Shown here: one piece after another, positions 30,415 to 46,378 of the stretch | Layout: the number at the start of each line of letters is the position of its first letter | How positions within the stretch are numbered: the stretch's first letter is position 1 | Source of the DNA: an uncultured Methylomirabilota bacterium | GTDB taxonomy: Bacteria; Methylomirabilota; Methylomirabilia; Methylomirabilales; 2-02-FULL-66-22 | Assembly: GCA_963705305.1 (NCBI GenBank) | Contig: OY970067.1 | Coordinates: 896,001-960,000 of the forward strand | Direction: 5' to 3' | Length of the DNA: 64,000 bases | Position numbers and translations under genes: made by a program | The notes under the pieces: generated by a model | What the model was told of the DNA's origin: nothing | The model's input: the letters and a program-made list of their open reading frames with translations, nothing else | Database searches by the model: none

Positions 30415-31029
30415 TTGGCTCGATAAAGGCGCTCGGCTACAGCTTCGACAAGAGGGACCTTGAGCGTCTGTCCTACATCCCAAGCGGATACGTCGACAAC
30501 GAGAACAGGGAACGGCGTATACAGGATTTGCTCACGCAGATCCTGGAGGGCACCCGGACGTTCCCCGTGCCGATAGGCCAGCCACCGGGACCGACGAATC
30601 CCTTCCCGCCTCCCCCATAACCCGGTGAGGAGCTTGGAGGAAACCTTCCGGCGTCCTCAATCACGTCTACCCGCCTGTGGTCGGCAATGATCTCGTCTCT
30701 CGATAGCTAATCTATCGATTCTAATGGAATCCGGGACGTTGCCATGTATGGCATGTTGCGTGAGGATAGCGTCACCATGGCCTGCCAGGCGCGCCTCGGC
30801 GTGCTGGCGCCGGCCGTCTGCCAGGCCGTCGGCCTGTTGGCCGATTCTCTTTGGAGCGGTGGCCGACGTGCGCCGGTGCACGGCGATCCGTCGGCGCCAG
30901 GCAGTGTGCCGACAGCCCGATGGAGGTCGGGGTGCCGCGTGAGCGAACCGTCTCACGGTGGTTATGGATGCAGGGACAAGACGAATTCCCTTGCACGTGA
31001 CGAACATGGCAACGTCCCCTATTACACCT

Positions 31030-31244
31030 ATTACACGCACATCTCCCTGACCGCCGTCGCCGAGGGGCTGGGCAGCGGCATCATCGGCTTTGGCGGGGAG
31101 GAGAAGAAGGCCGTGGAGGCCCTCCTGGGGCTGCCCGCCGGCTACGAACTGGTCTGTATCATGAAGTTCGGGGTGCCCGCAGGGCCCGTCACGAAACCGC
31201 CGATGCGACGCGAATTCAGCTGGCTGCACACGAACACGTTCTAG
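31030..31244 (+). pseudogene. Nitroreductase C-terminal fragment
   Basis: HISLTAVAEGLGS......V..LLGLP.GYE.V.....G.P; no recognisable N-terminus. Confidence 0.6.
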
Positions 31245-31346
31245 CGGCAGGGGACCGGGGCCCTGGCCAGGGCCTGGCCGCTCTCGGGCCGCCAGGCCGG
31301 GGCAGCAGTCGCAATCGCCTGGAGGGAGCCTGGAGACGAGCCCGCG

Positions 31347-31610
31347 ATGCCCACGATTGTGACGTACACGGATGCGAAACCTCCCATCAATCGCTTCCCC
31401 CGGCGGATCATCTCACCCACGCGCTCGGGCCCCTGCTGCTTCTCGGCGATGGAGGACCTCGGGCCGGTCCGGCACGCGGACCGGTACGAGTACGCCTACC
31501 GGCGCTGCCGGACCTGTGGGTTCACGGTGCGGGTGATCGTACGCTCCCTGCCCGACCAAGTGCGGATCGCCAAACTCCAGAAGCTCTTCGCCACCGCGCT
31601 CAGCCGGTAG
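31347..31610 (+). CDS. Small hypothetical protein (CC...CxxC)
   Basis: 87 aa, host-like GC3 usage, GGAG upstream, PCC and CRTCG. Confidence 0.65.
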   Translation: MPTIVTYTDAKPPINRFPRRIISPTRSGPCCFSAMEDLGPVRHADRYEYAYRRCRTCGFTVRVIVRSLPDQVRIAKLQKLFATALSR

Positions 31611-32108
31611 CCTGCGAGCGGCGCCCCTGGTTTGGCCACTGACCCTCGCGTTGGAAGCCAGCCTCACCCATCTGGAGACCACTGTCGCGGGTCCCGGCGA
31701 CTTGCCGGATCGCCCCCGCCCCCTTGGCTCAGTCACCGAGTCCTGGTGTGAGCCTATCCGTAAGCAACCGGCTTCTCCGAAAGCCACCAGACCCGTGGTC
31801 TCCGGCCCGAGGGCGCTTCGAAGCCATCATAAACAACCGTCTCCCTTGAAAACAACCGACCGGTTGTTTACACCGCGGCGCTCCCTCTGGTCTGAATTTC
31901 GTTCCCATCCGGCCCCTATAGGGGCGGGGTGGAAAATCCAAAAATCGCCGCTCGCCAACTCATTCCCCGGGCCATCCTCAATCTTCTTGTCGAAGTCTCC
32001 CACGCAGAGGCCCTCGGCCTGACCTACCAGGCGTTGGTGGGCGTCATCGGCACCGCATCCCTCCTGTATCGGCACCCCCGTGTTACTAAGACGGCGCCCT
32101 AATTGTCA

Positions 32109-32137
32109 TTGACACTCCCCCAACCCTTCGATAGGCT
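32109..32137 (+). promoter_or_regulatory. Sigma70-type promoter of the TIR-like gene unit
   Basis: TTGACA (32109-14), 17 bp spacer, TAGGCT (32132-37). Confidence 0.6.
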
Positions 32138-32270
32138 CTCGCAGGCTAAATTCTGCATTCCAGCTCCCGATTCCGGGCGTCGCGTGCGGCGCGAGGGTAT
32201 TCATTGCTAATACGCCGAAACCCTCATCGCGTGCGTTGCATCCGATCGCAAGCCTACAGGAGGAATGCGA

Positions 32271-33365
32271 ATGGCACTCCCAATTCGAGCCACACTTGAG
32301 GACGTGAATCAAACCTGTACCTATCTCGCTACCAAGCCCACGGGCGCAACACTAAAGGATATTTCTGGTGTGCTTGGTGACAAACTCGCTGACGCCCGTC
32401 GGATCAATGCTCTCGAAATGTGGGGCTTAATTCAGGCCCAGGACGAAGGCCGGTACAAAGTAACAGAAGATGGCCGAAGCTGTGCCAGAGGCGAAGACGA
32501 CAAGAGGGCCGTTCTCCAGGCCGTAATCCGCCGCATACCAGCATATCTAGCCATTATCGAACGCGCCGCTCATCGACGAGAAGACGCCCTCACAACGGCA
32601 GACGTTGGCTCCCACTGGCACGACCATTTCAAGGAACAAGCCAGTGAATCAGAGGACCAACTAAAATTGCAGGCTATCTCCTTTTTCCAAGTTGCTGAAG
32701 GTGCAGGACTCGGTACGATGATTATCGGCCGGCGCGGTGCCCCTACTAGATTCAGCTTCAATACTGCGGCACTCGCCCAATTCGTCGGTGCTGCGCCGCC
32801 GAGCATCAAAGACGCGCCAACCTCAACGCCAGCTGCCACCACAACCTCTCAGCTCACTCCAGACACAGAAAAAGGTGACATTACACCCCGCACCACGCCT
32901 AGCCCCGGTGCTGGAACCGTTCCCCGCACCGGACAAGGAATCTTCATCGCGCATGGCAAGAACAAGAAGCCGCTGGAGCAATTGAAGAAGATCCTGGAGC
33001 AGTTCAAGATTCCCTACAAGATCGCCATCGAAGAGCCGAATCTCGGACGGCCGATCAGCGGTAAAGTCCGGGACATCATGGAATCCTGCAACTGCGCAAT
33101 ACTCGTTTTCACCGCTGACGAAGAACTCAAGACAAAGGCGGGTGAAACGATTTGGCGACCCAGTGAGAATGTCGTGTATGAACTTGGCGCGTCTGGTTAC
33201 CTGTATGACAATCGAATCGTGATTATGAAGGAGGAGGGGGTTACGTTCCCGGCCAACTTCAAAGATATCGGATACATCTCTTTTGACAAGGACCAGCTCG
33301 ACGCGAAAGCGATGGACATCTTGAAGGAGCTTATTGGTTTCGGCATCGTGAAGGTTTCGACATGA
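32271..33365 (+). CDS. TIR-like nucleotide-binding domain protein (PF10137 / Cap12-type TIR) with N-terminal helical/wHTH region
   Basis: C-terminal IFIAHG...P...AILVFTADE...RPSENVVYELG...E.GV.FP.N...I.YI.F; P/T-rich linker; SD AGGAGG. Confidence 0.85.
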   Translation: MALPIRATLEDVNQTCTYLATKPTGATLKDISGVLGDKLADARRINALEMWGLIQAQDEGRYKVTEDGRSCARGEDDKRAVLQAVIRRIPAYLAIIERAAHRREDALTTADVGSHWHDHFKEQASESEDQLKLQAISFFQVAEGAGLGTMIIGRRGAPTRFSFNTAALAQFVGAAPPSIKDAPTSTPAATTTSQLTPDTEKGDITPRTTPSPGAGTVPRTGQGIFIAHGKNKKPLEQLKKILEQFKIPYKIAIEEPNLGRPISGKVRDIMESCNCAILVFTADEELKTKAGETIWRPSENVVYELGASGYLYDNRIVIMKEEGVTFPANFKDIGYISFDKDQLDAKAMDILKELIGFGIVKVST

Positions 33366-33439
33366 GATAGGAAACCGTCCGGCCGACGCATTGAGCCTGC
33401 TCGATACAAGCGACTTGGGTGGAGGCTCGGTCAGTGACG

Positions 33440-33841
33440 ATGGAGGTTTTCGAAAGAGCGGTGGCAGCCAACGCCCTCTGGCTTGTGCCTGTCGTGCTCC
33501 TCCTTCTCCAGTTCGCTATGAAGCTATGGATCGGGGAAGGAATTAGCGGACTTGCTACATGGAGACAACTGCTTCAGTCTCCCGTGGAGATAGGTTTTCT
33601 TGCCCTGTCGTTCGTCGCATCCTTGGTAATTTCCAGTCCGACGAGAGCCAATCCAGCGTTTGTTACCTGCTTGATTTTCTTTGTCTTGCTCTTCGCCTCC
33701 ATTCTAATCTGGAAGCTATCACCAATCGCACTGAACGCTAGAGACATCAAAATTTCTTTCGCCCTATTTGCCCTCAACTCAGCCATCACAATTCCAATGC
33801 TTGTCTTTAGCATCAACATGCTAGTCGAGGGCAGGCCATGA
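33440..33841 (+). CDS. Hypothetical integral membrane protein (about 4 TM)
   Basis: Four hydrophobic segments; stop overlaps the next ATG (ATGA). Confidence 0.75.
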   Translation: MEVFERAVAANALWLVPVVLLLLQFAMKLWIGEGISGLATWRQLLQSPVEIGFLALSFVASLVISSPTRANPAFVTCLIFFVLLFASILIWKLSPIALNARDIKISFALFALNSAITIPMLVFSINMLVEGRP

Positions 33842-34536
33842 GTGCCAATGACTTGCTTCTATACACGCTTCCGGCTCTAGTCGTTGGCCTAGTTGCTCTT
33901 CTCTTCTATGCGATTCGCCTCTCCGCACACTCCCGAGCAGAGTTAGAGTATCGCAGCGATACATTTAGACTTTCAATTGAAAAGCAAATCCAGCAACTCA
34001 CCGAGCAACTCCTTCAGAGTCGAGCTAGGTTTGAGAGCCTGAATCATCTACTTCTTGAAGCACAGCGCAGCCGCCGCGAACACCCCGCGTCTATAGCTGT
34101 TTCCACCTCGTTTTTCGAGGATCTAGGTGTCGACATCACCGCTTCAGTTGATCCCCGCCTTGTGTTCGTTCTTACGCCGTTCCACCCGGACTTTGATGAA
34201 GACTACAAAGTTATCAAACGCGCGCTGACGGATCAGCAATTCACCTGTACTAGAGGTGATGACGATCCCCACTCATCCAACATCCTGCCTTACGTTCTCA
34301 AGCAAGTAGCGAAGGCGCGCCTTGTAATCGCGAACATTTCAGGTCGAAATCCCAACGTCATGTACGAGCTCGGCATTGCGCACGCAATGGGAAAGCCGGT
34401 CCTCATGGTCTCCCGTAGCAGCGACGACATTCCCTTCGACCTCGCTAGCACCCGAATCCTGACCTACGAGGATTCATCCGACCTCGAAAAGGGACTCCGG
34501 AATTGGGTCGTCCATTCACTCGCCCGGTCGGCCTAA
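33838..34536 (+). CDS. N-terminal TM + coiled coil + nucleoside 2-deoxyribosyltransferase-like (TIR/NDT-fold) protein
   Basis: VFVLTPF...RGDD...A.LVIANISGRNPNVMYELGIAHAMGKPV...IPFDL...RIL.Y. Confidence 0.82.
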   Translation: MSANDLLLYTLPALVVGLVALLFYAIRLSAHSRAELEYRSDTFRLSIEKQIQQLTEQLLQSRARFESLNHLLLEAQRSRREHPASIAVSTSFFEDLGVDITASVDPRLVFVLTPFHPDFDEDYKVIKRALTDQQFTCTRGDDDPHSSNILPYVLKQVAKARLVIANISGRNPNVMYELGIAHAMGKPVLMVSRSSDDIPFDLASTRILTYEDSSDLEKGLRNWVVHSLARSA

Positions 34537-34600
34537 ACAGCAACTGATCTGACCGTTGGACCATTCGCCCTCACCGTAGCCGCTCATCGCGGACGTAGCC
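34531..34600 (+). other. Degenerate attC-like site
   Basis: GCCTAAAC...GACCGTTGG...CATTCGC...GCCGCTCATCGCGGACGTAGCC, colinear with the attC-like site at 52479; overlaps the preceding stop codon. Confidence 0.55.
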
Positions 34601-34791
34601 CTCACTCCAACGAAAGCTCTTCATCCCAGCATCCGGATTCGCCCGCATGGCGAGCCATCCACAACCCGAACCGAGTTCCTCATATTATCGATCCAAAAAT
34701 CATTCTCCCGTATTCTAGTCATACCCAGTTATTGACCACTCCCCGTCCCGTAACCACATGATTAAATTGGCGAAAACGTGGTCGCAGCATA

Positions 34792-34822
34792 AACGCGGGT
34801 TCGAATCCCGCTGGGGACACCA
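34792..34822 (+). other. 3' fragment of tRNA-Glu (att-site-like remnant, not a full tRNA)
   Basis: AACGCGGGTTCGAATCCCGCTGGGGACACCA: T-arm, GGGGAC acceptor strand and CCA; no 5' half upstream. Confidence 0.75.
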
Positions 34823-35313
34823 AGCATATATACCCCCATGTTGTCACTGAATCGCATTGCGAAATTTCGAGGAGTCGTGGCGGCATAGCGCGCCGGAGGT
34901 CCGGAGCGAATACGCTCGCCGAAAGCGCCCATTCACGTCAAAGGACCATCGAGATGAAGAGGACGAAACGACTCCGAAAGCAACCAACGCATATCGAACT
35001 CCGCGTTGTCCTCACGTCGAACAGCGCGGCGGCAACGATTTCAGGAGACGGATCGTTCCACCAGATGCGCTTCAATGTATCCGGCGAGAAAGCTGCCGTC
35101 GAGTATCTCGGCCGAATGTTCGCAGACGAGGGCTGGTCGGGCTACGCGCCATTGGTCGGCGGTCCCTGGGGCGGGAAGATCGGACAGAGTCTCCCGAAGC
35201 TGCTCGAACGTCCTCGACCAACTGAATCACGACACGCCAGCCCGACTGCGCCAAGTGCCGTGCGCCACAGGTCAGCGTCCCGACGCACGGGGAGATGGCT
35301 GGCAGATTTCCCC

Positions 35314-35456
35314 TTGACGCGGCCGGGCGGGGGGTGCTAGCGTCCCAGCCGTTCGTTTTGCCCTGCTGTGGTTCCCCCGGGTTGGCCCCACCACGGCCGT
35401 TCCTGCTTGGCCGGCCGTGGTTGTCAAGCCGGGCCGGTTTTCCAACTTCCTATCCG
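35314..35456 (+). mobile_element. IS91/ISCR-type oriIS end, orphan copy 1
   Basis: Ends in GTTTTCCAACTTCCTATCCG (identical at 48582-48601), resembling the ..TTCCTAT.. oriIS consensus; TTGACG-18-TAGCGT upstream. Confidence 0.6.
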
Positions 35457-35679
35457 TTGGTCTTGCGGGTGACGTTGAATTGCGCTGCGAGCTCGTAGTC
35501 GCTGCCCGTGACCTTCTGGATCGCGGCGCGTGTCGCGGGCGTGGTCGTCGCGTTCTTGTGCAAGGCAATCATCATGTTCGGCCCCTCCTGTCGCATCCTA
35601 CCATGACAGCAAAGAGAACCTCTCAACCCATCAACAGCGGACGCTTGGATTGTAGAATCCAATCATCCGGAACTTGACA
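35457..35679 (-). mobile_element. IS481-family remnant (end plus transposase N-terminus)
   Basis: MMIALHKNATTTPATRAAIQ....ELAAQFNVT..T; TGT terminus at 35679 on the minus strand; cut at the oriIS. Confidence 0.75.
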
Positions 35680-35996
35680 GGTAGCAGACGAGCCTTATCG
35701 CGACAAAACCGTCGAAATCGCCTTGCTGGTCGTTTCCATCGCCTCTGTCCTCAACGGGTTGCAATGGAGGCGGAACTTATCGATATCGCAGCGTCATTTC
35801 ATGCAGATTTGGGTACCACACGAGCAATTCGAAGCGGCCCAGAAACCGCGGTGACGGGGTGTCCACCGAATCCTGGGAACTCCAGACCGGAGCAAGTGCG
35901 AGCAATAGGACAGTCGTCAGTCAGACTGTCCCCAGCGCTCATAATCGACGGAAGCCGAGTGTCAGCGCTTACTGCGCGCCGCAAGAAAAAGAGCAC

Positions 35997-37379
35997 ATGA
36001 AACGCCAACTCGCTGGAGGGATCTTAGCCAAAGAAGGTCGAGTACTGCTCGTCAGACCAGAGACAGGCAATCCAGCTGTAGATGAGATGTGGTCGCTGCC
36101 AACGGGAGAGATACGGGAACATGAGAGCGGTGAGCAGGCGTTGCTTAGGGTCGTGGAGGAGACGACAGGCCTGGATGTTCATATCTCTCGAGCGCTACTT
36201 GTACACGAATCGCCGGAGTTAGCGATCGCGCTATTCGAGGCGTCGATACTTGACAGCTCGCGCGCGCACGACGCGAGTCCTTTAGAGTGTGGCCTCTTTG
36301 CGTTCGATGATCTGCCGCAGCGAATCCTTATCGACAGCATGTTGTGCATTGCGAAATACCAAGTCATCAGCGCACACTTAGGTGAACACCCATTCAACAT
36401 CATTGATAGAGTGTTCGCGTCAATCTTTTACTCCCACTTAGCTCCACATCTTGGGCACTTCCGTCTCACAAACGACATCGAAGTCTACAAGTACATTGTA
36501 CTCAGCACGCCATATCGCAAGTTCAAGTCGGTCGTGCCATTTCTCTTGTCCAGGTGCGACGTTGCCAAGAACTATTTGTTTCTGATACCAGAGTTTTGTT
36601 TTGCAATATGGACGCTCTTGGATGATTGTCACGATGAGACATCGCACAGATATGGTCACAAGAGCGCGTTGCTGAACTTTGGCAAGCGAGCGTCATTGAT
36701 CGCATTGTTTAGATCGCTCCACAACATGACGGGCCTGCTCGATGGCGAGCTGTCATCACCAAGTGTAACGAAAATAGTCTCTGCCCTGAGTCAGTCCGCA
36801 TCGGTGCTACAACAGAGAGGCCAGAATGGCCTTGAAACAGACATCGACGCCTATCTGGGCCAGAGCACTGACAGGACAGAGTTCCTGCGAGCTGCGTGGG
36901 TCGGCGTGTTGGAGGAGACCGGCTACGACCCGGAGAAGCGCGACATACTCTGCGATGTTCAAAGGCGCTCTTCACGGATCGGTCAATTGATCAACGATTA
37001 CTTCGATATTGAACGAGACCAACTGCAGGACTTCGAGCAGAAGATAGCAAGCGCCCACTGGTTGTTGCTCTGCCGTCAGGCCGCTGAAGAAGACAGAGCC
37101 TTGTTACGTCAGCTATGGTCAGGAGTGGAAGGCGGCAGAGAACAATACCTCGCTCTCCTGGACAAGTACGACATAAGAAGTGTGTTGCGTCAGATGATTA
37201 GGGACGCGCTAGTCCGGATCGTCAGCCGCATTGAGGAGTCGGGGCTTGACACAGATGAGAAAGCCATTTTGATCGCTTGGCACCAGATGTCATTTGTCCA
37301 TTTCTACCGAGAGATCGATGACGTGAGTGTGTTGTCGTCCTTTCTTGCGTCGGTTGAGAACCTCTTGATCAAACGCTAG
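35997..37379 (+). CDS. NUDIX domain fused to class I isoprenyl-diphosphate-synthase / terpenoid-synthase fold
   Basis: WSLPTGEIREHESGEQALLRVVEETTGL (degenerate Nudix box); LLDDCHDETSHRYG (FARM-like); GQLINDYFD (SARM-like). Confidence 0.75.
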   Translation: MKRQLAGGILAKEGRVLLVRPETGNPAVDEMWSLPTGEIREHESGEQALLRVVEETTGLDVHISRALLVHESPELAIALFEASILDSSRAHDASPLECGLFAFDDLPQRILIDSMLCIAKYQVISAHLGEHPFNIIDRVFASIFYSHLAPHLGHFRLTNDIEVYKYIVLSTPYRKFKSVVPFLLSRCDVAKNYLFLIPEFCFAIWTLLDDCHDETSHRYGHKSALLNFGKRASLIALFRSLHNMTGLLDGELSSPSVTKIVSALSQSASVLQQRGQNGLETDIDAYLGQSTDRTEFLRAAWVGVLEETGYDPEKRDILCDVQRRSSRIGQLINDYFDIERDQLQDFEQKIASAHWLLLCRQAAEEDRALLRQLWSGVEGGREQYLALLDKYDIRSVLRQMIRDALVRIVSRIEESGLDTDEKAILIAWHQMSFVHFYREIDDVSVLSSFLASVENLLIKR

Positions 37380-37446
37380 CCTCTCTGAGGTGCTCACGTG
37401 CCACCCACGGTGTTCGCTAGCTTAGCCAAGACTAGGAGGCACATTT

Positions 37447-40400
37447 GTGCCTATGGATCATAAGTCAGATCTAGGAGCTAAGATCCGCGCAGGTCGAGCC
37501 ATCCTCATCGCTGGCACCGGTGTCTCTATCGCAGCCAGCGTCGATGCTAGGACGAATCGATCACATCCCCAGGCATCGTGGGCCGGACTTTTGGAAGACG
37601 GGTTGGAGTGGCTCAAAGAGCACAAGCACATGGACCCTGAGGAGGCCGATGCCCACTTGAAGCTGCTCAGGACGAATCCGAAGACCCACCGTTTCATTTC
37701 CGCAGCCGAAGACATTACGGTCCGAATGGGTGGCGCTTCGTCGGATCATTTTAGGGACTGGCTTGCGCGAACCATTGGCACCATCGAAGGTCACGATCGG
37801 AGTGTTCTCGATGCCTTGCATGAGGTTCGACAGCATGGAAATCTACTAGCCACGACCAACTACGACAGCCTACTGCTTGGTGATTCGCCGACGCTCAACC
37901 CCATCACTTGGCAAGAAACCGACGCCCTCATCGGCGCGGTCCGAGACGGGCAGACGGACAAGATCATCTTCCTCCACGGCTGGTGGCGCAAACCCGAGTC
38001 CGTTATCCTCGATTGGAGATCGTATAACCAGATCACGCGCAACGATGTCTACCGCGAAGATTTGGCGGCATTCTGGAATACGAATACGTGGGTGTATGTC
38101 GGCTGCGGCGTCAATGGCCTGTCCGATCCCGACTTCGGTCTTCTGTTGGAACGCTACGGCGAGCGCGCTCGTAATGCCCAGCATTGGGACTTCTGTTTGG
38201 TGTGCGGAGAAGCTCAGCGGTGTGAGTTTCAGGCACACTTCGATACGTGCAGATTCAACATCCGCGCCGTCTCGTATGGCGAGAGCCGTTCGGACTTGTC
38301 CGCCTATCTCCGCTCGCTCCTGCAAGCACCAATCAACACAACGATTCCGGCACCGGCAGATCCCCTACGCGATGAACTGACCAAAGACTTTCCGCTTCAA
38401 GAGTACTACAAGATCACGACATCCCTGACACCATTCCCTGGTCTCGGTCATTTCAAGGAGGAGGACGCGCGGCTGTTCTTTGGCCGCACAGCCGAGACGC
38501 TGAGGCTCTGGCGAGCCGTGCAGGGGTTTCCTTTGGTGCTTCTATACGGCCAGTCCGGTGTTGGTAAGTCCTCGCTCCTCCGCGCAGGCTTTGTTCCGCG
38601 CGTCCCACCCGATACCAAGCTAGAATGCCTCACCCGAAACAAGTCTGTCGGATACCACAAACAACTGGCCTCGCTTCTGGCCGCACTCGGCCGAGGACGG
38701 ACGGTGGTGGTGCTTGACCAATTGGAGGAAATCTACATCGATAGGGGGGACGACTGGAGGAGTGAAGCAGCTGAATTGTGGCAGACACTGGCCAAGGGAC
38801 TATCCGACCACCCGTTTTTGACGACCCTCTTATCGTTTCGTAAGGAATATTATGCGGACGTACGGGATTCCCTCAACCAGCACGAGATCTCTTGGAGAAG
38901 CGAGCAGGAGATACACCTTTTGCCGCTCAATGCCGAAGGGATTCGCGAAGCCATTGAAGGGGTTGCGAAAAATCAGTATTTGCAGAATCTTTTTCACCTA
39001 AGGGTCGGCGACGGTATGGCCGACGCCCTGGTGGCCGACTTACTCGACGACGAAAGCTTAGAATCGCCCATTGGACCCCTCCTGCAGTATCAGCTAAGCA
39101 AGCTGTGGGACGATGCCCGGTCGAAACGCCGAAGCGACGCCGACTGGATCGACCTTAGCCTCGATCAGTATAGGTCCCTGCGCAGCAGGACGCTCGATGA
39201 TCTGCTTGATGATCAGCTGGCTGAAGTTGCATCCGCATGGCCCACATTTGTGACCAACGGCCTAGCGTTGGATGTGCTGCATTCCTACACAACCGACCTG
39301 GACACCGCCAAGGCTCAGGTCGAGCAAGACGTTGAGAACCGCTACAGCCACATTGAAGGCATCCCAGACTTCTTCGCGTGGTTGACGAAGAACCTGCTCT
39401 TGCTACTGCACGATGGGACTAGTGAGAGACGAACTGTTCGGCTTGCACATGACTGCCTCGCGCCCGTGATTCGTCGACGCTTTCAATGTTCGAATGCGCC
39501 CGGACAGCGAGCCGCTAGACTCGTGAAGGCCAAGCCCGGGGAGGTGACGTTCAGTGAGTCTGACGTTGAGACGATCCGCAAGGGTCGACTTGGCATGGGC
39601 AAGATCGATGCTGAGGTCATGCTCCAGGTGGAACGAGACGCGTCGAAATACCGCGATCAGCGGCGGCGGCGAGTCCACGACGCGATCCAGAACGCGGAAG
39701 TGTGCCTACAACAGCTGCGATTCAAACAAAGCTTGAGACACCTCCAGGAGGCCGTCTCAGTTGGAGAGCCTGATCAGAGGATCTGGGACGTGGCTCTGGA
39801 GTTGACGTATCCATTGAGGGATCTCGATTGGACAAGCGAGTTGGAGGAGACGATCGCCTTGCTAGGAGAGCACGGCTCGAGGCCGCTGGCCGAAAGCGCA
39901 ACGGTGGACCGGTTCTACCCAGTGATGGTCTACGTCACGGGCGGCGACTTCAAAATGGGGAGCGAGGACGAACTAGCCTACGAGGACGAAGGACCCGTCC
40001 ACGACGTTCATCTGAGCAGCTTCCTCATGTCTGCGACGCCGGTCACGTGGTGGCAGTTTGGCCTGTTCTGTCTGCGGACCGACCGCCCGCTTGCCAGCGA
40101 CGCCGGATTCGGACGAGGAGAAAGGCCAGCGATCAACGTGAAGTGGCTCGATGCCGTTGACTATTGTATTTGGCTGACGAAGACAGTAGGGGAAGTCGGA
40201 GGGAAACAGCTGCAGCAGGTCTACACGAGAGACGGAAAGAACGTAACAGCCGACTTCGACCAGAACGGCTTCCGCCTGCCTACGGAGGCTGAATGGGAAT
40301 ACGCTGCGAGAGAGATGGGTCAAACCAAGCGCTTTGGTAACGGAATGGATGTGGCTGATCCGGCACAGATGAATTTCGACGCCGGGCATGAACTAAATGA

Positions 40401-40731
40401 ACGGACGCCGGGGTGGTGCAGGCAAGGTAAGTCGCTCGACATGACGACCGTAGTCAGAAATTATAAGCCCAATGCCTTGGGATTGTACGACATGAGCGGT
40501 AACGTGTTCGAGTGGTGCTGGGATTGGTGGAGCAAGGGAGACGACACTCCCTTTTACCGCACGAAAGACGCAGCGTGCGATCCACTAGATCCAACGTCTA
40601 AAGAGCGCAGAGTGGTTCGCGGAGGGTCATGGCAAAGTACCGCCTTCCTTTGCCGGTGTTCGTACCGATGGAGGTTCAATCCAGCGCATAGGTTCAGTAA
40701 TCTCGGATTCCGGGTCGTTCGCCGGCCGTGA
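37447..40731 (+). CDS. SIR2-like domain + STAND-type P-loop NTPase + C-terminal FGE-sulfatase (CLec) domain
   Basis: AGTGVS, ASW.GLL, TTNYD.LL, LHG, VGCG..GLSDP; PFPGL..F...DA.LFFGR, GQSGVGKSS, LDQLEE, LAHD; RLPTEAEWEYAAR, PN.LGLYDMSGNV.EW, RGGSW, GFRVV. Confidence 0.9.
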   Translation: MPMDHKSDLGAKIRAGRAILIAGTGVSIAASVDARTNRSHPQASWAGLLEDGLEWLKEHKHMDPEEADAHLKLLRTNPKTHRFISAAEDITVRMGGASSDHFRDWLARTIGTIEGHDRSVLDALHEVRQHGNLLATTNYDSLLLGDSPTLNPITWQETDALIGAVRDGQTDKIIFLHGWWRKPESVILDWRSYNQITRNDVYREDLAAFWNTNTWVYVGCGVNGLSDPDFGLLLERYGERARNAQHWDFCLVCGEAQRCEFQAHFDTCRFNIRAVSYGESRSDLSAYLRSLLQAPINTTIPAPADPLRDELTKDFPLQEYYKITTSLTPFPGLGHFKEEDARLFFGRTAETLRLWRAVQGFPLVLLYGQSGVGKSSLLRAGFVPRVPPDTKLECLTRNKSVGYHKQLASLLAALGRGRTVVVLDQLEEIYIDRGDDWRSEAAELWQTLAKGLSDHPFLTTLLSFRKEYYADVRDSLNQHEISWRSEQEIHLLPLNAEGIREAIEGVAKNQYLQNLFHLRVGDGMADALVADLLDDESLESPIGPLLQYQLSKLWDDARSKRRSDADWIDLSLDQYRSLRSRTLDDLLDDQLAEVASAWPTFVTNGLALDVLHSYTTDLDTAKAQVEQDVENRYSHIEGIPDFFAWLTKNLLLLLHDGTSERRTVRLAHDCLAPVIRRRFQCSNAPGQRAARLVKAKPGEVTFSESDVETIRKGRLGMGKIDAEVMLQVERDASKYRDQRRRRVHDAIQNAEVCLQQLRFKQSLRHLQEAVSVGEPDQRIWDVALELTYPLRDLDWTSELEETIALLGEHGSRPLAESATVDRFYPVMVYVTGGDFKMGSEDELAYEDEGPVHDVHLSSFLMSATPVTWWQFGLFCLRTDRPLASDAGFGRGERPAINVKWLDAVDYCIWLTKTVGEVGGKQLQQVYTRDGKNVTADFDQNGFRLPTEAEWEYAAREMGQTKRFGNGMDVADPAQMNFDAGHELNERTPGWCRQGKSLDMTTVVRNYKPNALGLYDMSGNVFEWCWDWWSKGDDTPFYRTKDAACDPLDPTSKERRVVRGGSWQSTAFLCRCSYRWRFNPAHRFSNLGFRVVRRP

Positions 40732-40827
40732 GCTCACTTTATCCCTGCATTGTCTGCTTGACGTGCGAGTCGGGTGGTCGTGGCACCGTACCTCAGCCCT
40801 CTCCCCGGACAGCGATGTGTGATCGTC

Positions 40828-41862
40828 ATGGATTTCTCGAGAGCTTCGTTTGATAGACACAAGCACGTTTTTGTGTCGCTAAATGATCATTGCAACAGGC
40901 GATGCACCTATTGTTACCTGACTGAGGAATCACTATCTCGCTCGAAGCCGGTTGACGCGTCGGCGTTAATCCGTGGTCTGACTCGTCTATATAAAGAGCA
41001 TGAGTTTAGGCTCGTCACAATCGCTGGTGGCGAGCCCGGCCTCGTGTCTAACGTCTCGACGGTGGTTGAGGCAATAGCCGATATCGGGTACAGCGTCATT
41101 ATTAACACGAATGGCACGTTGGGCCCTAAAGGTATTCGTGAGATTCGGAAGTGCAACATAAAGGCAATATCCTTCAGCCTTGATAGTTGTGATAGAGGCG
41201 TCAACGACCGGCTGCGTTTCTCTGGCAGCTGGGACCTGGTTCAGAAAGGCGTGCTGCGTTGCAAGGAGGAAGGAATTCCGGTACGAATCTCGGCTGTGGT
41301 GTGCACGCTGAATCAGCACGAGGTGTCTCGCCTGTTCGAGTGGTGTAACGCCGTGGGTGTTGAGGTGTTGAACATCCACGAGTTGGACATTTCGGTAGAT
41401 CCGCAGTTTCTCGGGCCACTGAAACTGTCGCCGGCTGATTGGCGAGAGTTGGTGCGCAAGCTAGTGGTTGAGTTACGCGACAAACAAAGTTACACCGCGC
41501 TGAGAATGCCGATTTCGTACCTTACAGAGTTGGAGTCGAAGCGCATCGCTGAACATCAGCTGTCATGTCCCGCGACACACAACGACACGTTGTGCGTGTC
41601 GCCACATCTGTCGACGTATCGGTGTCCCTTGCTGATAAATCGGCGCAAAGTATCGTACAAGGAGCTCGACGATGCATTGGAGACGGAGCCATTGGACGGA
41701 TTGGAAGCGAACTATGGCTCCGCGCGCTGTCCGTTGTCCGGAGCGGGAGGCGGCGATGCACCTGGGCTGATCGATGCGTGCAAGTTGGTAAAAGTGACAA
41801 TCAACCGAGCCGGCGGTGCTTCGAATACACCGATGTGGGCTGACATCCTAGGACAGTTCTAG
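40828..41862 (+). CDS. Radical SAM protein with C-terminal Cys-rich (Twitch/SPASM-like) extension
   Basis: CNRRCTYC, GGEP, NTNG, SLDS; further Cys residues CPA..LCV..RCP..CP..CK. Confidence 0.88.
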   Translation: MDFSRASFDRHKHVFVSLNDHCNRRCTYCYLTEESLSRSKPVDASALIRGLTRLYKEHEFRLVTIAGGEPGLVSNVSTVVEAIADIGYSVIINTNGTLGPKGIREIRKCNIKAISFSLDSCDRGVNDRLRFSGSWDLVQKGVLRCKEEGIPVRISAVVCTLNQHEVSRLFEWCNAVGVEVLNIHELDISVDPQFLGPLKLSPADWRELVRKLVVELRDKQSYTALRMPISYLTELESKRIAEHQLSCPATHNDTLCVSPHLSTYRCPLLINRRKVSYKELDDALETEPLDGLEANYGSARCPLSGAGGGDAPGLIDACKLVKVTINRAGGASNTPMWADILGQF

Positions 41863-42032
41863 GGTGCGTCTTGCCCGAATAGTTCTCCGACAGCAGCTCG
41901 CAGTGTGTTACCTGGATCCGTGTTCGCGCGCACCGAGGCGCCTACCCCGTGCGTCCAGCGCTCGGGAGACCTCATCGACCGCGTCGAGCACGTTCTGCGC
42001 GAAATCAGTAATCCGGGACGTTGCCAAGCAAT

Positions 42033-42580
42033 TCACGGAGCGGCCGTGAGCAGTCGCTCCCACCGCGCGCGCTCCACGCGGCCGCGCGCTACCGCCTGGG
42101 ACACCGCCTGGGGGGAGACCCCGAGGACGGGAGCCCGGGGCCCCGCGGGGTGCCCGCCCACCGCCACCCAGCGGGAGGCGATGCCGGCCCGGGCGCGCGC
42201 CACCGCGCCGGGGCCCCCCCGCCAGGGCAGCCCGCCCCAGACCGCCCTGGCGGCAGCCCCGGGCCGTGCGGGGCGCCCCCCGGAGGGCGGGTCTGCGGAC
42301 CGGGGCGGCCGACGCCCCCGCCGGCTGCCGCTGCGCCGCAAACGCCGCCCGGCCGCGGATCCGCGCATCCCCGCGATCCGCCGCGCGCGGGCGGGGGCCG
42401 CACTGCCCAAGGCTGGTCCGCGTGTCTCGCCAGGCCCGGGGGCCCGTTCCCCCGAGCGCGCTGTGGCCGGTCCAGGGGCAGCGGGCGAGCGTCCGGAGCG
42501 CGGGCACGCCGTTCGCGCGGCGCGGGTGGAGGTGCAGGTAGCGGACGCGGTCCCGGAGGGAGGGCGCCGCCGCCACCACG
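42033..42580 (-). pseudogene. Y1 (IS200/REP-associated) tyrosine transposase remnant, C-terminal half with HTH
   Basis: VRYLHL.P.RA..V..L..L...PWTGHSAL and LGVS..AVS.AV.RG; homologous to 49600-50040. Confidence 0.7.
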
Positions 42581-42658
42581 AAGGACGTGTCGCGGTTCTG
42601 GGGAACGCCCGATGATTATAAAGGCTGTGTTCGGAGGACGAAACCCTGTGGGGCCAAC

Positions 42659-43723
42659 CTAATTATGAGCGATTTCTTTGAGGGAAATGGGTAACACTCT
42701 GTGGTTCTGAGTGATGCTTATGACCCCGTGTTTTTGTAACCAGGCTTCCACCGCCAGCCGCCGGGCCGTTCCGGCGTGACGGGGGGTGCAATCCGTCTGG
42801 GCCTCCATGAGCGTCCGGGTCAGGGCATTGATCTCCTCGAAGACCTCCCGTCGCTTGCGGCGAGTATACGCCTTCAGGGCTGGCCTGGCATCCTGAAACA
42901 CCCGGCAGGCCACGTCCCCCTGGAGAGAGCGACGGCGGCGATGGTTCAGGTCATGCGCCAAGAGGGCCGCCCAGCTCTGCACTTGGGACTCCGGGATCGG
43001 ACCGCTGGCGCGGAGCTTCGCCACCAGCGGCGTCTTGAGTTCCCGCACCGCGCGTTCCATCCCGCCGGTGTCGGGCGGATAATGCGGGGGCGAGTTGAGT
43101 GGCAGGACCCCGTACCGGGCCAGCACCTCCTCGACCGCGTGCTGATTGAGATTGCCCCCGTTGTCCCGCTTGAGCACGAGCGGCGGGCCATGCTGCACGA
43201 AGAGCTGTTCCAGGCGAAGCGCCACGGTCTCTCCTAAGATCCGCTCCCCCACCCAGGGGGGGAACTTGTAGCGCGAGGCGAGATCCTGCACCTGCTGGAG
43301 GCGCAGGAGAGGCGAACTCCCTCGCGCCAGTTCCGCGTCGTCCAGGGACCAGACCAAGCCGGGTACGTGCCAGGTGATGTGGCGGCAGGCGGCCTGGCGC
43401 TGCTGGGCCCGCTGCCGCCGCAGCGTCGCGGTCAGCGCCTGCAGCGTGCGGCGGGAGACCTGCGGGTGGAACTGCCGGTACACCGCCCCGACGCCTCGGC
43501 TGCGCCGGCGGCCGTGGTGCAGGCGGGCTACCTCCCCGCGCAGCTCCTCGAGGGTCAGGGGGGCCACCTTCTTGGGCCCTGGCCGGAGCCGGGCGGGCTG
43601 GCCGCGCTCCAGGCGCTGCTTCCACCGCCGGAAGGTCCTATAGGGCACCCCCAGGACCCGGCAGAGGCGCTCGTAGGGCCAGCGCACGTCGTGCTTCAGC
43701 TGGGTGAAGGTCGGGATCAGCAT
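42659..43723 (-). pseudogene. Integrase-core (rve) transposase orfB, degraded
   Basis: WSLD, DLASRY, G.PL.LK.DNG, NSP...P...G..ER...E.K, LN...R..L.G. Confidence 0.75.
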
Positions 43724-43733
43724 CGCGGCCACC

Positions 43734-44069
43734 TCAGGGGTTTTTTTTATCCGGCTGCGCGAGCACCTGCCGGAGCCGCTCCGTCTGCTGCAGGACGGTG
43801 AGCTGGGCCTGCAGCTCCTGGGTCTGGCGTCGGAGGGCCGCCTTCTCCAGGTCGTGCGGCTGCGCCGACCGCCCCTGGCCCCGGTTGCCCAGGGCCGCGA
43901 CCATCGCCGCCAGGGCCCGGCGCTCCCACTTGGAGTCCGTCTTGCGGGAGACCCCCAGCTGCCGGGCGGCTTCCTGGGCACTCACCACCCCGCTCCGCGC
44001 CTGCATGATCAGCTGCGCCCGTTGCCGGGCCAGGGCTTGCTGGTGGGGACTGGCCGTCGGCTCGCGCAT
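43734..44069 (-). CDS. IS-associated HTH protein (orfA-like)
   Basis: SA.EAARQLGVSRKT..KWE.RAL; ends at A-rich AAAAAAAACCC, a possible frameshift site into the downstream integrase-core ORF. Confidence 0.65.
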   Translation of the reverse strand: MREPTASPHQQALARQRAQLIMQARSGVVSAQEAARQLGVSRKTDSKWERRALAAMVAALGNRGQGRSAQPHDLEKAALRRQTQELQAQLTVLQQTERLRQVLAQPDKKNP

Positions 44070-45633
44070 CGCGTCCTCCCGCCCCGCGGGCCTTCTCTAC
44101 TTGGTGGGCGGCGGTGGGGCTTTCGATTCCTGGAGCTTGGTGAGCCGCTGCTCCAGTCGGGCCAGGCGGCTCTGCTGCTGCAGGGCTTGCCGCGCGAGCA
44201 GGCGCTCCAGCTTCGGGCTCAGCGCGGGGCCCGGGTCGCGGCGCGTCGGCGCCGCCAGCGCCTGGAGCATCGCTGCTAGCGCCCGCTGTTCCCACTGGGC
44301 GAGCACCTTCGGGCTGATCGCCAGCTCCTGGCAGACCTCCCCCGGGCGCCGCCGCTCGGTCCAGAGCGACAGCACCGCCTGCACGCGCTGCTGGGCATTG
44401 TATCGCAGCGGGTCCGGTTTGGCTGGGATTTCCGTGCTCACGGGCCCCTCCTTCCAGGTCGTAGGTCACCTCCTGCTGTGGTCGCGATTCCTCGCCATCG
44501 ACGAGCATCTTCACGCGGCCCTTCTCCGCCCGGATCACCACCGACTGCTCGCCCAGCCGGCCCACCATGTAGAAGGGGCTCTGGGGCTGCCCGCGGAGCG
44601 CGAGCTCGAGCACGTTCTCCTGGATGCCCCGCTCGATCACCTGCCGGAGCTCCTGGGCGATGCCGAAGAAGCGATCCGCCGGGCAGAGCCCCTCCAGGGC
44701 CTGGTGGGGCCGCCGGTGGTTGTCGTGCGTCCCCCAGAGCCGGATCCGCTCGCCGGCCGCCTCGAAGCTCTCGAACTGGGCGCGCGCCAGGAACTCCTCC
44801 CAGATCGTCTTCCAGAAGCGCTCCAGCTTGCCCAGGGTCATGGGGTGGTGCGGGCGGCTCTTGATGTGGTGCACCCGATCCTTCCGGAGCTCCGCCTCGA
44901 ACCGGGTGGTCCCGCGCCAGCTGGAGAACTGCCGGCCCTGGTCGGAGAGCAGCTCCTTGGGGACCCCGTACTCCGCCACCGCCCGGCGGTACACTTCCAG
45001 GACGTGCTCCGCCGTCTGGCTGCGGAAGACGTCCAGCCCCACCACGTAGCGGGAGTGGTCGTCGAGGAAGCCGATCAGGTAAGCGTTCTTGCCGCCCAGG
45101 CGGAAGGTGAAGATGTCGGTCTGCCAGAGCTGGTTCGGCGTGGCGCGCTCGAAGAAGCGCGGTCGGGCCGGGTTCCGCTGGGGTTTGGGGCGTGGCTTCT
45201 TGAGGAGCTGGTGCGCGTGCAGGGTGCGGCGCACCGTCTCCCGGCTCACCGGCAGGCACAGCACGCGCCGCAGGAACTGGCTGATCTTCTGGATCCCCGC
45301 CTCGGGGTGGCGCCGCTTGAGGGCGACGACCTCCGCCTTCACCGCCGGGGCCACTTTCGGGCGCTGCCGGTGCGGCCGTGTCGGCTTCGCCTGCAGGCCC
45401 GCTTCCCCCTCGGCGCGATACCGGCGCACCCACGCCCCGAGCGTACTGAAGCCGACGCCGAGTTCGCGGGCGACCTGCTTGGGGGGGAACCCTTCCTCCA
45501 GGCAGAGCTGCACCGCTTTGCGCCGGACCTCGAACGGGTGGACGTGGGGGTGCGCCCCACCCGCCCGCCGCGTTGCCTTCCGCGGCCCCCGGCTCTGCTT
45601 CCGCCTCCCTCCTGCCTTGCCGATCCTCTCCAT
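43747..45633 (-). CDS. IS481-family DDE transposase (HTH + rve), degraded, with a long C-terminal tail overlapping downstream ORFs
   Basis: PNQLWQTDI, FLDDHSRY, SDQG.QF, HP.TLGKLERF, N..RPHQ.L. Confidence 0.85.
   Translation of the reverse strand: MERIGKAGGRRKQSRGPRKATRRAGGAHPHVHPFEVRRKAVQLCLEEGFPPKQVARELGVGFSTLGAWVRRYRAEGEAGLQAKPTRPHRQRPKVAPAVKAEVVALKRRHPEAGIQKISQFLRRVLCLPVSRETVRRTLHAHQLLKKPRPKPQRNPARPRFFERATPNQLWQTDIFTFRLGGKNAYLIGFLDDHSRYVVGLDVFRSQTAEHVLEVYRRAVAEYGVPKELLSDQGRQFSSWRGTTRFEAELRKDRVHHIKSRPHHPMTLGKLERFWKTIWEEFLARAQFESFEAAGERIRLWGTHDNHRRPHQALEGLCPADRFFGIAQELRQVIERGIQENVLELALRGQPQSPFYMVGRLGEQSVVIRAEKGRVKMLVDGEESRPQQEVTYDLEGGAREHGNPSQTGPAAIQCPAARAGGAVALDRAAAPGGGLPGAGDQPEGARPVGTAGASSDAPGAGGADAPRPGPRAEPEAGAPARAASPAAAEPPGPTGAAAHQAPGIESPTAAHQVEKARGAGGRDARADGQSPPASPGPATGAADHAGAERGGECPGSRPAAGGLPQDGLQVGAPGPGGDGRGPGQPGPGAVGAAARPGEGGPPTPDPGAAGPAHRPAADGAAPAGARAAG
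44097..44441 (-). CDS. IS-associated HTH protein
   Basis: AVLSLWTERR.P.EVC.EL.I...L.QW..RAL..ML.AL. Confidence 0.65.
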   Translation of the reverse strand: MSTEIPAKPDPLRYNAQQRVQAVLSLWTERRRPGEVCQELAISPKVLAQWEQRALAAMLQALAAPTRRDPGPALSPKLERLLARQALQQQSRLARLEQRLTKLQESKAPPPPTK

Positions 45634-46378
45634 GGGTCACACTCCTTTCGGTTCCCCCGGGGAACCTCGGTGTCGGAGTGTCACCCATTTTCCTCACGGA
45701 CTTTTGCTCATGATCTGGTCGTTAGCCCACTTATCAATTATTGGAGTGCACCGAAATTTTGCTCCGCTTGACCTTGTTCAAGATTCTTGAAGACCCAGCC
45801 CTTATGAATGCCTTCCGCGACTCTGATCGACTTGATAAGTATTTCTGCGGCTAACATGCATGGCGGGGATGCTTTACGAACTGCGGGTCAGGCAAAGCCT
45901 CCCAACATTCATACCAGCCAAATCCTCTCCTCCCAGTGCGGGTGCGCAGATTCGCCCTGTCCGGGGAGCCGCGCCGGACTCGAACGGGGCACCCCATCAG
46001 GCGGATAGCCAGGAATACCCTCCGAATTTCCGCCCGCGCCCCCTCTATAGGGCCGGGGGGAAATTAAAAATCGCTATGGCCTGAACCCAGCCGCTTCTGG
46101 CGCTGGCGTTAGGAGCCGGCTTGAGCTAGCATTGCGGGCGGACCAATCAATGGGGCCAGGCCAGTCCCGCCTAGATCGGGCGACCTGAAAGGAATGGCAT
46201 TCTCTGCGAAAACGCCGCAGGAGGCAGAACGGCAGGCGAAAGCATATCTGGAATACTCCAAACCAGTGAATTGATAGAGGATAGGAACCAATAAACCCGA
46301 GGCGGATGCCCAATGAACGGCAGTGAAGGCAGGGGACATGCTCCACACCGATGGGAGGGTGAGGAGGAGGGCAACACA

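Follow-up and report, generated by a model that had tools for sequence, protein, structure and literature searches.

A rare three-gene module combining a SIR2-nSTAND1-lectin-fold protein with a NUDIX-prenyl-synthase-like fusion and a radical-SAM enzyme

The usual view of STAND/NLR-like proteins is that of self-contained machines in which sensor and effector are combined. In the passages of Kaur et al. (2021, eLife, PMC8195603) devoted to them, effector/EAD-STAND-FGS conflict systems, with STAND modules of the nSTAND1 or NACHT type, were described computationally, and in the corresponding passages of Dore et al. (2024, PNAS, PMC10907252) such STAND-FGS proteins appear as targets of diversity-generating retroelements (DGRs). 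The only studied exception with enzyme-like accessories is KpAvs2 with Avap1 and Avap2, and it is still unexplained: in the relevant sections of Bechon et al. (2024, Nat Commun, PMC11564622), the KpAvs2 operon needs the accessory proteins Avap1, a radical-SAM enzyme, and Avap2, a DUF6375 protein. Avap1, which resembles prokaryotic viperins (pVips), was needed against some phages, no pVip products were detected, and its product and role are left unexplained in those sections (PMC11564622). Here we describe a three-gene locus in a stretch of 64,000 nucleotides from an uncultured Methylomirabilota bacterium (contig OY970067.1, positions 896,001 to 960,000; this whole stretch is called the window, and positions are counted from its first letter). 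Its genes g1, g2 and g3 encode a fusion of a NUDIX domain with a trans-prenyl-diphosphate-synthase-like domain, a SIR2-nSTAND1-CLec/FGE protein and a radical-SAM enzyme, respectively.

The g2 protein has exactly the syntax set out in those passages of Kaur et al. and Dore et al. (PMC8195603, PMC10907252), namely an N-terminal effector, nSTAND1 and a C-terminal FGS domain. As in the part of the KpAvs2 study cited above, the locus is a three-gene operon in which a tripartite STAND protein is accompanied by a radical-SAM accessory gene, and the likeness between g3 and Avap1 is one of description only. At this locus a distinct STAND clade has been inherited with two enzymes whose families are nearly private to that clade. 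We regard the trio as a horizontally acquired, integrated conflict module, most likely anti-phage, and give this reading a probability of roughly 0.55.

Co-inheritance of the three families

Analysis of the open reading frames (ORFs) showed three intact, co-directional genes on the + strand: g1 (35997..37379, 460 amino acids, stop included), g2 (37447..40731, 1094 amino acids, stop included) and g3 (40828..41862, 344 amino acids). An earlier note on this DNA had reported an intact co-directional trio with gaps of 67 and about 96 bp and a GC content clearly below that of the host. Both observations hold: the gaps on the shared strand are 67 bp between g1 and g2 and 96 bp between g2 and g3, and the GC contents are 52.1% (g1), 57.0% (g2) and 53.5% (g3) against 66.1% for the genome, a single 5.65-Mb contig. 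The reading frame of g1 is open from 35859, and the ATG at 35997, from which 12 of 12 homologues align, was chosen as the start; g2 begins with a GTG located 7 nt downstream of an AGGAGG; and the frame of g3 is open from 40774, with the ATG at 40828 being the start in 10 of 11 homologues. The deposited g1 protein (P0001) has 346 amino acids and begins at residue 115, so that the NUDIX part (35997-36340) is missing from it; since all homologues back the longer form, g1 is taken as a protein of 460 amino acids rather than 346. A scan for promoters and terminators gave counts no higher than those in shuffled sequence, and Rfam returned 0 matches at E<=1 over 30000-46500, with no riboswitch.

The families of the two enzymes are tiny, with about ten close clusters each among 5.8 billion. 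The g1 search, in which 8000 candidates out of 5.8e9 clusters were scored, yielded 13 proteins at E<=1e-3, comprising the one from this locus, ten with 44-69% identity and two with 32-33% identity. The g3 search, with 3904 candidates, yielded 16 proteins, including the one from this locus and ten with 53-78% identity. To assign homologues to the same contig, the recorded size in bp of the longest contig together with its source was used as a fingerprint, each cluster having a single contig on record. All three families were found on four of the four contigs of at least 10 kb that bear a close g1 homologue, in addition to the study locus. These are the contigs of 14819 bp (source lgn; g1 P0007, g3 P0021, g2 P0031), 43072 bp (lgn; P0009, P0022 and P0033, in the same order), 10914 bp (lgn; P0010, P0024, P0037) and 11739 bp (jgi; P0011, P0023, P0035). 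A contig of 4289 bp (lgn) bears g1 (P0008) and g3 (P0020) and is too short for a whole g2, none of which was found on it; for the remaining close homologues the contigs measure 1.7-5.2 kb, not long enough for judging co-occurrence. Wherever a locus was long enough for judging, the three families co-occurred, which contradicts the idea that their homologues never do.

The g2 partners on these contigs are not a random draw from the STAND proteins. The search with the nSTAND1 region of g2 gave 1051 matches, of which the best 120 were listed, and the four partners are among the seven best non-self matches of the 1051 (47-52% identity, E 1e-136 to 1e-141), with the eighth non-self match falling to 40% identity and E 1.8e-102. 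Furthermore, the effector differs between loci. All four long contigs encode a g2 partner of the TIR-nSTAND1-FGE type, 965-970 amino acids in size; among the eight g2 orthologues, a SIR2 effector is present in the study locus and in P0034, which is 55% identical over the aligned SIR2 part, and the other six are TIR-nSTAND1-FGE proteins. In a metagenome locus (L002), a g1 homologue (66% identity, essentially P0003) precedes an alpha/beta-hydrolase-EAD8-nSTAND1 gene truncated at the end of the contig; the hydrolase part of this gene matched a PADLOC effector model at 1.4e-48. Since g1 is kept with SIR2, TIR and alpha/beta-hydrolase-EAD8 effectors, the enzymes follow the nSTAND1-CLec core. The TIR-clade loci are 64-85% (g1), 67-86% (g3) and 61-76% (g2) identical between themselves, which marks them as distinct lineages that have diverged in parallel.

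These results bear on whether the trio is one system or two. It is possible, and in our opinion unlikely, that two separate systems were mobilized together, with g1 and g3 forming an antiviral-metabolite defence of viperin-like logic and g2 an independent single-gene STAND defence. In the passages of Kaur et al. (PMC8195603), STAND-FGS proteins are described as acting alone or with EAD partners, which would suit a g2 that needs neither enzyme. The 4289-bp contig must hold g1 and g3 close together without a full g2 between them, g1 relatives without a STAND neighbour exist, and the g3 core is most like the pVip models and the nucleotide- or nucleoside-acting BlsE, MoaA and viperin-like enzymes. 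Against this stands the result that none of the four long contigs with a close g1 or g3 homologue lacks a member of the g2 clade, together with the fact that the g2 partners form one tight clade apart from about 1000 other nSTAND1 proteins. In addition, the association has outlasted about 50% divergence and three effector types. Neighbours in defence islands usually stay together for less divergence than that.

The g1 family extends beyond these loci. When 1.84e9 representatives were searched with the g1 profile, 32 proteins were found at E<=1e-30, including about 20 further full-length NUDIX-synthase fusions and several versions that lack the NUDIX domain; NCBIfam has no name for these wider-family proteins beyond the NUDIX part. 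Scans with the g1 pattern gave one locus in genomes and two in metagenomes. Among 401 sampled genomes of Streptomyces, the sole match was a distant g1 relative (29% identity) in Streptomyces sp. RG80 (L001, 9259-12554), where it is immediately preceded by a gene for an ICMT/PEMT-family membrane methyltransferase and followed by a MerR gene, with a DDE transposase in the vicinity. The ICMT/PEMT family acts on prenylated or lipid substrates, and this single Streptomyces locus therefore weakly favours an isoprenoid-type substrate for the g1 family. On this distribution, the NUDIX-synthase fusion is an ancient accessory enzyme that occurs sporadically, and in one of its branches it became linked, along with g3, to the STAND clade.

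The same Streptomyces locus could be taken as an argument for a terpenoid or nucleoside secondary-metabolite cluster into which a conflict gene was inserted, or for mere chance adjacency, because the g1 relative adjoins the methyltransferase and MerR genes rather than defence genes. The prenyl-synthase fold and radical SAM, typical of natural-product enzymes, would also suit such a cluster. This explanation, which in its form of an inserted conflict gene is one of the two put forward by the earlier note, is nevertheless highly improbable, since the three genes have stayed associated while their proteins diverged by about 50% and effectors were swapped. The trio occurs together in five of five long loci, and no other biosynthetic genes are found beside it, the flanks consisting of TIR-type genes and insertion sequence (IS) elements.

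Domains and motifs of the three proteins

The domain composition read from the sequence in the earlier note (NUDIX and prenyl synthase, SIR2-STAND-FGE, radical SAM) was recovered in full by Pfam and by AF2/Foldseek. The effector domain of g2 (37495..38319, + strand, residues 17-291) is a SIR2 domain of the FAM118B/ThsA type, which scored 32.6 bits with PF13289 (SIR2_2) against a cut-off of 24.5. Its nearest solved relative is human FAM118B (phmmer E 9.7e-14 across residues 17-291), which is far closer than ThsA, for which the match was weak (E 0.18). N138 (in TTNYD) and H177 (in LHG) of g2 align with the TTNFD and IHG of FAM118B; this Asn and this His are active-site residues with a catalytic role in SIR2 domains. 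FAM118 proteins are presented in the pertinent part of PMC12700824 as sirtuins that resemble bacterial antiphage sirtuins. The effector is followed by an nSTAND1 NTPase (38431..39459, + strand, residues 329-671; PF20703, 103.4 bits against a cut-off of 27.1), in which the Walker A motif G368-S376 with K374 and the Walker B residue D424 are invariant across the eight orthologues.

The C-terminal domain of g2 (39919..40722, + strand, residues 825-1092) is a predicted sensor of the C-type-lectin (CLec)/FGE fold, with 173.4 bits for PF03781. The nearest solved chain is the Treponema denticola variable protein TvpA (2y3c, E 2.9e-25), and the alignment of g2 with TvpA runs to the very last residue. 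When g2 was compared with the true FGE chains 6s07 and 5nxl, the first active-site Cys corresponded to C1069 and the second position was occupied by Arg; because the second catalytic Cys is replaced, this domain is likely a lectin-fold binder and not an enzyme. In the last 40 residues of the eight orthologues the scaffold residues are invariant, and of the positions between them about half vary. Apart from this tail, the CLec domain is more strongly conserved than any other part of g2 (55-63% identity, compared with 49-53% for the NTPase).

Whether a DGR diversifies the tail of g2 in this genome could be answered directly. No second copy of the tail, as a template repeat, was found in the 5.65-Mb genome. 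The reverse transcriptase (RT) loci of the genome (364023, 1126176, 1877069, 2700471 and 4099634) all combine RVT_1 with GIIM and are group II intron maturases; these five loci correspond to four distinct ORFs, as two of them score identically. A DGR acting on g2 in this genome was therefore ruled out.

The conservation pattern of the CLec domain bears on the proposal of the earlier note that the product of g1 and g3, a modified nucleotide or isoprenoid, is a signal sensed by this domain of g2. The high conservation outside the tail speaks for it, the lack of DGR diversification here points in the same direction, and so does the observation that the enzymes stay with the sensor part of g2 when the effector changes. 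We consider the proposal doubtful all the same, and the evidence lent it no support. The nearest structure is that of a DGR variable protein, and about half of the positions equivalent to its variable region differ between orthologues in an otherwise invariant scaffold. Binding positions that vary from lineage to lineage would imply different ligands for each lineage, which suits an antigen sensor better than the receptor of one conserved metabolite. Moreover, in the passages on these proteins in PMC8195603 and PMC10907252 the recognition of an invader macromolecule is proposed, and no CLec/FGS-STAND protein is known to bind a small-molecule signal.

The NUDIX domain of g1 (35997..36371, + strand, residues ~1-125) is of the MutT/NTP-pyrophosphohydrolase type. 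It scored 31.3 bits with PF00293 against a cut-off of 21.1, and its best matches in PDB and NCBIfam are MutT or (d)NTP diphosphatases/pyrophosphohydrolases. The REUxEE glutamates of a NUDIX box are catalytic, and only one of the three is kept at this locus. The close relatives show the same tendency, with no glutamate in P0003/L002 and none or one in P0002, P0004, P0005 and P0006; in the TIR-linked clade and in most of the distant g1 members the box is canonical.

The second domain of g1 (36384..37376, + strand, residues 130-460) is prenyl-diphosphate-synthase-like. The AF2 model of g1 is of high confidence (predicted local distance difference test, pLDDT, 88.3; predicted template modelling score, pTM, 0.90), and together with Foldseek it placed the domain in the all-alpha fold of the isoprenyl diphosphate synthases (IPPS). 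The top Foldseek matches in PDB are geranylgeranyl diphosphate (GGPP), octaprenyl and decaprenyl synthases and the prenyltransferase Ord1, with TM scores (target) of 0.62-0.77 and E 1e-7, and the g1 family profile matched GGPP synthase at E 5.8e-5. PF00348 gave no match to g1 of this locus at E<=0.01, and homologues scored 23.1-27.8 bits against a gathering score of 27 bits. The first Asp-rich motif is DDxxD-x4-RYG (D209, D210, D213), with invariant R218 and G220-type columns. The second is NDxxD (N333, D334, D337) instead of DDxxD, in 13 of 13 close members; the ND is found in 41 of 42 aligned sequences of the family, and in a distant NUDIX-less member (P0160) a Cys replaces the last Asp of this motif. 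A RKFKS loop and an RT motif are also invariant. A Trp is found at -4 of the first Asp-rich motif, and by the rule for the IPPS, in which an aromatic residue at that site predicts a short pocket, the Trp of g1 predicts such a pocket. Because the NUDIX box has decayed and the synthase motifs are invariant, it appears that hydrolysis by the NUDIX domain is dispensable here and that the synthase-like site is not; the loss of the catalytic glutamates in this clade suggests that the domain probably does no more than bind a nucleotide-like moiety.

The state of the NUDIX box also bears on a further alternative, in which the NUDIX and radical-SAM proteins would serve NAD+/ADP-ribose housekeeping by processing the products of SIR2 or TIR, or intermediates of phage NAD+ salvage. 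Eight of the nine known partner effectors consume NAD+ (two SIR2, six TIR), the homologues were labelled "ADP-ribose pyrophosphatase" by one source, and NUDIX domains have been linked to NAD+/ADP-ribose conflict systems in parts of the literature. The catalytic glutamates, however, are lost exactly in the SIR2-linked clade, and the best matches of the domain are MutT/(d)NTP pyrophosphohydrolases, not ADP-ribose hydrolases. In L002, moreover, g1 is coupled with an alpha/beta-hydrolase effector, and the invariant prenyl-synthase-like domain would be left without a role. This alternative is therefore very unlikely.

The radical-SAM core of g3 scored 74.4 bits with PF04055, and its CxxxCxxC motif is intact (C40, C44 and C47 in ORF numbering, which correspond to C22, C26 and C29 of the 344-amino-acid protein). 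The nearest families and structures, over the core region only, are MoaA, BlsE, SkfB, SuiB and viperin-like enzymes. In the C-terminal 100-170 residues there are four conserved Cys (C265, C284, C319 and C336 in ORF numbering), which could ligate an auxiliary cluster; for this C-terminal part no Pfam model was found at E<=10, SPASM/twitch included, and a search of PDB with the C-terminal half gave nothing at E<=10. In the ESM Atlas nothing but generic radical-SAM and polyprenyl_synt clusters was found.

Two assignments of g3 were tried and rejected. The earlier note had pointed to the antiviral viperins among the radical-SAM enzymes. With the NCBIfam viperin model NF038283, g3 reached 59.3 bits, far below the cut-off of 180, with the core alone aligned, so that this model does not place it in the viperin family. 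The best PADLOC matches of g3 are pVip models (E 3.9e-20, and 6.2e-23 for P0021), covering profile positions 4-189 of 257. The second assignment, a kinship to the anaerobic sulfatase-maturating enzymes (anSME), was considered because g2 has an FGE-fold domain and because the profile A2 aligned to anSME over 292 positions (E 3.2e-10). It was unsupported, with the C-terminal half having neither a PDB match nor SPASM/twitch at E<=10.

Island setting and flanking genes

Downstream of g3 lies a 594-bp repeat (42005-42601) with 99% identical copies at two other sites of the genome, followed by a multi-copy IS481-like element of 3083 bp (42647..45729, - strand) with rve and HTH domains, which bounds the island and stands outside the system. 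Copies of this element elsewhere in the genome are 100%, 97.7% and 93.8% identical, and because a 100% identical copy exists it was recently active and is not decayed. Upstream of g1, no transposase domain was found in 34537-35996. The description in the earlier note of genes surrounded by decayed IS relics is thus right as to the presence of the downstream repeat and IS481-like element, and wrong as to the decay of the element and as to the upstream side, for which no transposase domain was found.

The region upstream of g1 contains a 168-bp repeat (34648-34815) with 77% identity to genome positions 1595067-1595232, and a tRNA-like fragment (34795..34822, + strand) that consists of a T-arm and the 3' half of an acceptor stem with CCA. 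Neither ARAGORN nor Rfam called a complete tRNA or tmRNA gene around 34795-34822, and the fragment is possibly an att remnant marking the boundary of the island. Further upstream, three genes on the + strand (32265-34536) are as GC-poor as the trio. The first encodes 366 amino acids with a C-terminal TIR domain of the CAP12/Pycsar type (PF10137, 4e-16; PADLOC PDC-S35, 8e-19) and a weakly CARF-like N-terminus, the second is a 140-amino-acid ORF without matches, and the third encodes 232 amino acids with a nucleoside 2-deoxyribosyltransferase/TIR-like C-terminus (PADLOC TIR effector, 1.8e-9). These three genes are probably a separate candidate defence module within the same island.

The distribution of g1 among relatives of the host fits horizontal acquisition: when 20 genomes of the same genus and 20 of the same order were searched, many of them incomplete metagenome-assembled genomes, g1 was found in none of the 40. 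Parts of the locus are matched at 95-100% identity by short contigs (<=334 bp) from three metagenome studies. The first study (X1) has identical pieces that fall on g1, g2 and g3; the pieces from the second (X2), with 2-10 differences apiece, fall on g1, on g3 and, within g2, on the FGE part; and the third (X3) has identical pieces for g1 and g2 but none for g3. Contigs of this length are too short for showing linkage of the genes; the matches in three studies indicate that the genes exist outside the present assembly. Viral contigs were without relatives of g1 or g3, and the matches of g2 to them were confined to the FGE domain (residues ~740-1094), so that there was no sign of a phage-borne trio.

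The favoured explanation and known systems

Our preferred explanation, a conflict module directed most likely against phages, builds on what was observed (domains with their motifs, inheritance of the three families together, exchange of effectors and an island setting) and adds to it a mechanism whose steps are deduced from the domains. The TvpA-type CLec/FGE-fold domain of g2 would bind a determinant of the invader, the nSTAND1 NTPase would then oligomerize, and the FAM118/ThsA-type SIR2 domain would hydrolyse NAD+, whereby the infected cell may be arrested or killed. In this scheme g1 and g3 would be a dedicated pair of accessory enzymes, inherited with the nSTAND1-CLec clade whatever the effector. 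They may make or transform a diphosphate-bearing small molecule, such as a short prenyl or nucleotide-prenyl compound, and this molecule might strengthen, widen or hold back the STAND response, much as KpAvs2 needs Avap1 and Avap2. The pair is kept with the sensor and NTPase across different effectors, and for this reason its likelier role is to regulate, license or complement the STAND response than to process NAD+ products.

A bolder proposal, which we put forward as speculative, is that g1 and g3 make a new nucleotide-isoprenoid or short prenyl-phosphate metabolite that is obligatory for the NLR-like response, either as a co-activator or licence of nSTAND1 or as a second, metabolite-based effector arm that nSTAND1 would release. 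The NUDIX domain would then hold the nucleoside-diphosphate end and the synthase-like domain the prenyl-diphosphate end, and the radical-SAM enzyme g3 would modify the alkene or the ribose. A prediction of a complex between g1 and residues 301-824 of g2 gave a score of 0.00; it was run without controls and is evidence in neither direction.

Several points weigh against reading the trio as a single conflict module. The co-occurrence on the long contigs was inferred from matching contig size and source, not from gene order, strand or spacing, and in the 4289-bp contig the gene order differs from that of the study locus, because there is no room for a whole g2 between g1 and g3. The loci represent no more than three independent lineages (the SIR2 clade, L002 and the TIR clade), and the two more distant g1 homologues with 32-33% identity (P0012 and P0013) have a contig size in common with no g2 or g3 match listed, for g2 the best 120 of 1051. 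Prenyl-synthase-like versions without NUDIX exist, and no homologue of g2 or g3 was found within 10 kb of the g1 relative in Streptomyces sp. RG80, and in that genome as a whole g3 has no close relative either (best E 2.7e-14). With its decayed NUDIX box, g1 shows that at least one predicted activity is dispensable, and in the AF2 model of g3 the C-terminal domain has a pLDDT below 50, the model being poor beyond residue 260. Finally, a functional tie of g1 and g3 to g2, through contact or an exchanged molecule, is a prediction from their co-occurrence.

The module matters beyond the single locus. The free exchange of effectors between loci implies that the enzymes belong either to the sensing and regulatory core or to a parallel metabolite arm, and the co-inherited pair hints at small-molecule chemistry attached to bacterial innate immunity. 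The product of g1 and g3 could reveal a new immune chemistry, in the form of a prenyl- or nucleotide-derived molecule, and could explain why some bacterial NLRs need radical-SAM partners. Should the metabolite proposal be true, it would be the first link of isoprenoid-type chemistry to STAND/NLR immunity in bacteria. Because so few loci are known among billions of proteins, the module has limited ecological weight; with a size of 5.9 kb and clear catalytic residues it is directly testable.

The likeness to described systems is closest for g2. SIR2-STAND antiviral proteins are known, of the AVAST/Avs type with a SIR2 effector. As in these proteins, the SIR2 domain of g2 is fused to an oligomerizing NTPase, and as in SIR2-STAND, ThsA and FAM118B it is a SIR2_2-type domain with conserved Asn and His, for which NAD+ depletion is the expected output. 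In contrast to Avs/AVAST, g2 has a lectin-fold sensor instead of TPR-like repeats and two conserved enzyme partners, and none of the PADLOC Avs/AVAST models matched it at E<=0.01; its sole PADLOC match at that threshold was LmuA (2e-4), in the SIR2 part. With the systems in the cited passages of PMC8195603 and PMC10907252, g2 shares the predicted logic, with a lectin-fold domain as the sensor of the invader and an effector that kills the cell, and its relatives swap effectors (TIR, EAD8) as those systems do. It differs in that its effector is SIR2, which is outside the effector list in the passage of Kaur et al., and in that the locus is without a DGR, to which the systems in those passages are frequently, not obligatorily, linked. 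In the main text of Kaur et al. (PMC8195603) there are no occurrences of Nudix, radical SAM or prenyl. In supplementary file 1 of the same paper, the row for KAB2905607.1 (from a metagenome-assembled Anaerolineae genome) shows two STAND(NACHT)-FGS genes, each followed by NUDIX genes, and unannotated genes lie in between; the paper makes no comment on this neighbourhood, which may be a related module.

The accessory genes have their nearest counterparts elsewhere. According to the KpAvs2 sections of PMC11564622, that protein combines a nuclease effector with a terminase-type sensor, whereas g2 is an nSTAND1 protein with SIR2 and CLec domains, and the second accessory is DUF6375 there and a NUDIX-prenyl-synthase fusion here. 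PF19902 (DUF6375) matched none of g1, g2 and g3 at E<=0.01, and did not match g3 even at E<=10. With pVip, g3 has in common a radical-SAM core of the same broad subgroup and the setting in a defence island; unlike pVip, it has a different, Cys-rich C-terminal domain and is always paired with a prenyl-synthase-like protein. In a search of full texts and of supplementary file 1 of Kaur et al., no paper describing a NUDIX-prenyl-synthase and radical-SAM pair with STAND was found, although an unremarked listing in other supplementary data may exist. The absence of a named system with this composition, as noted before our analysis, was thus confirmed in PADLOC and in the literature searched as full text. 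This novelty belongs to the trio as a whole; the architecture of g2 was already in the part of Kaur et al. (PMC8195603) discussed above, and KpAvs2 with Avap1 (PMC11564622, in the sections cited) is a precedent for STAND with radical SAM. The locus is a rare, conserved three-gene module in which a known kind of STAND sensor is joined by a new, family-specific enzyme pair.

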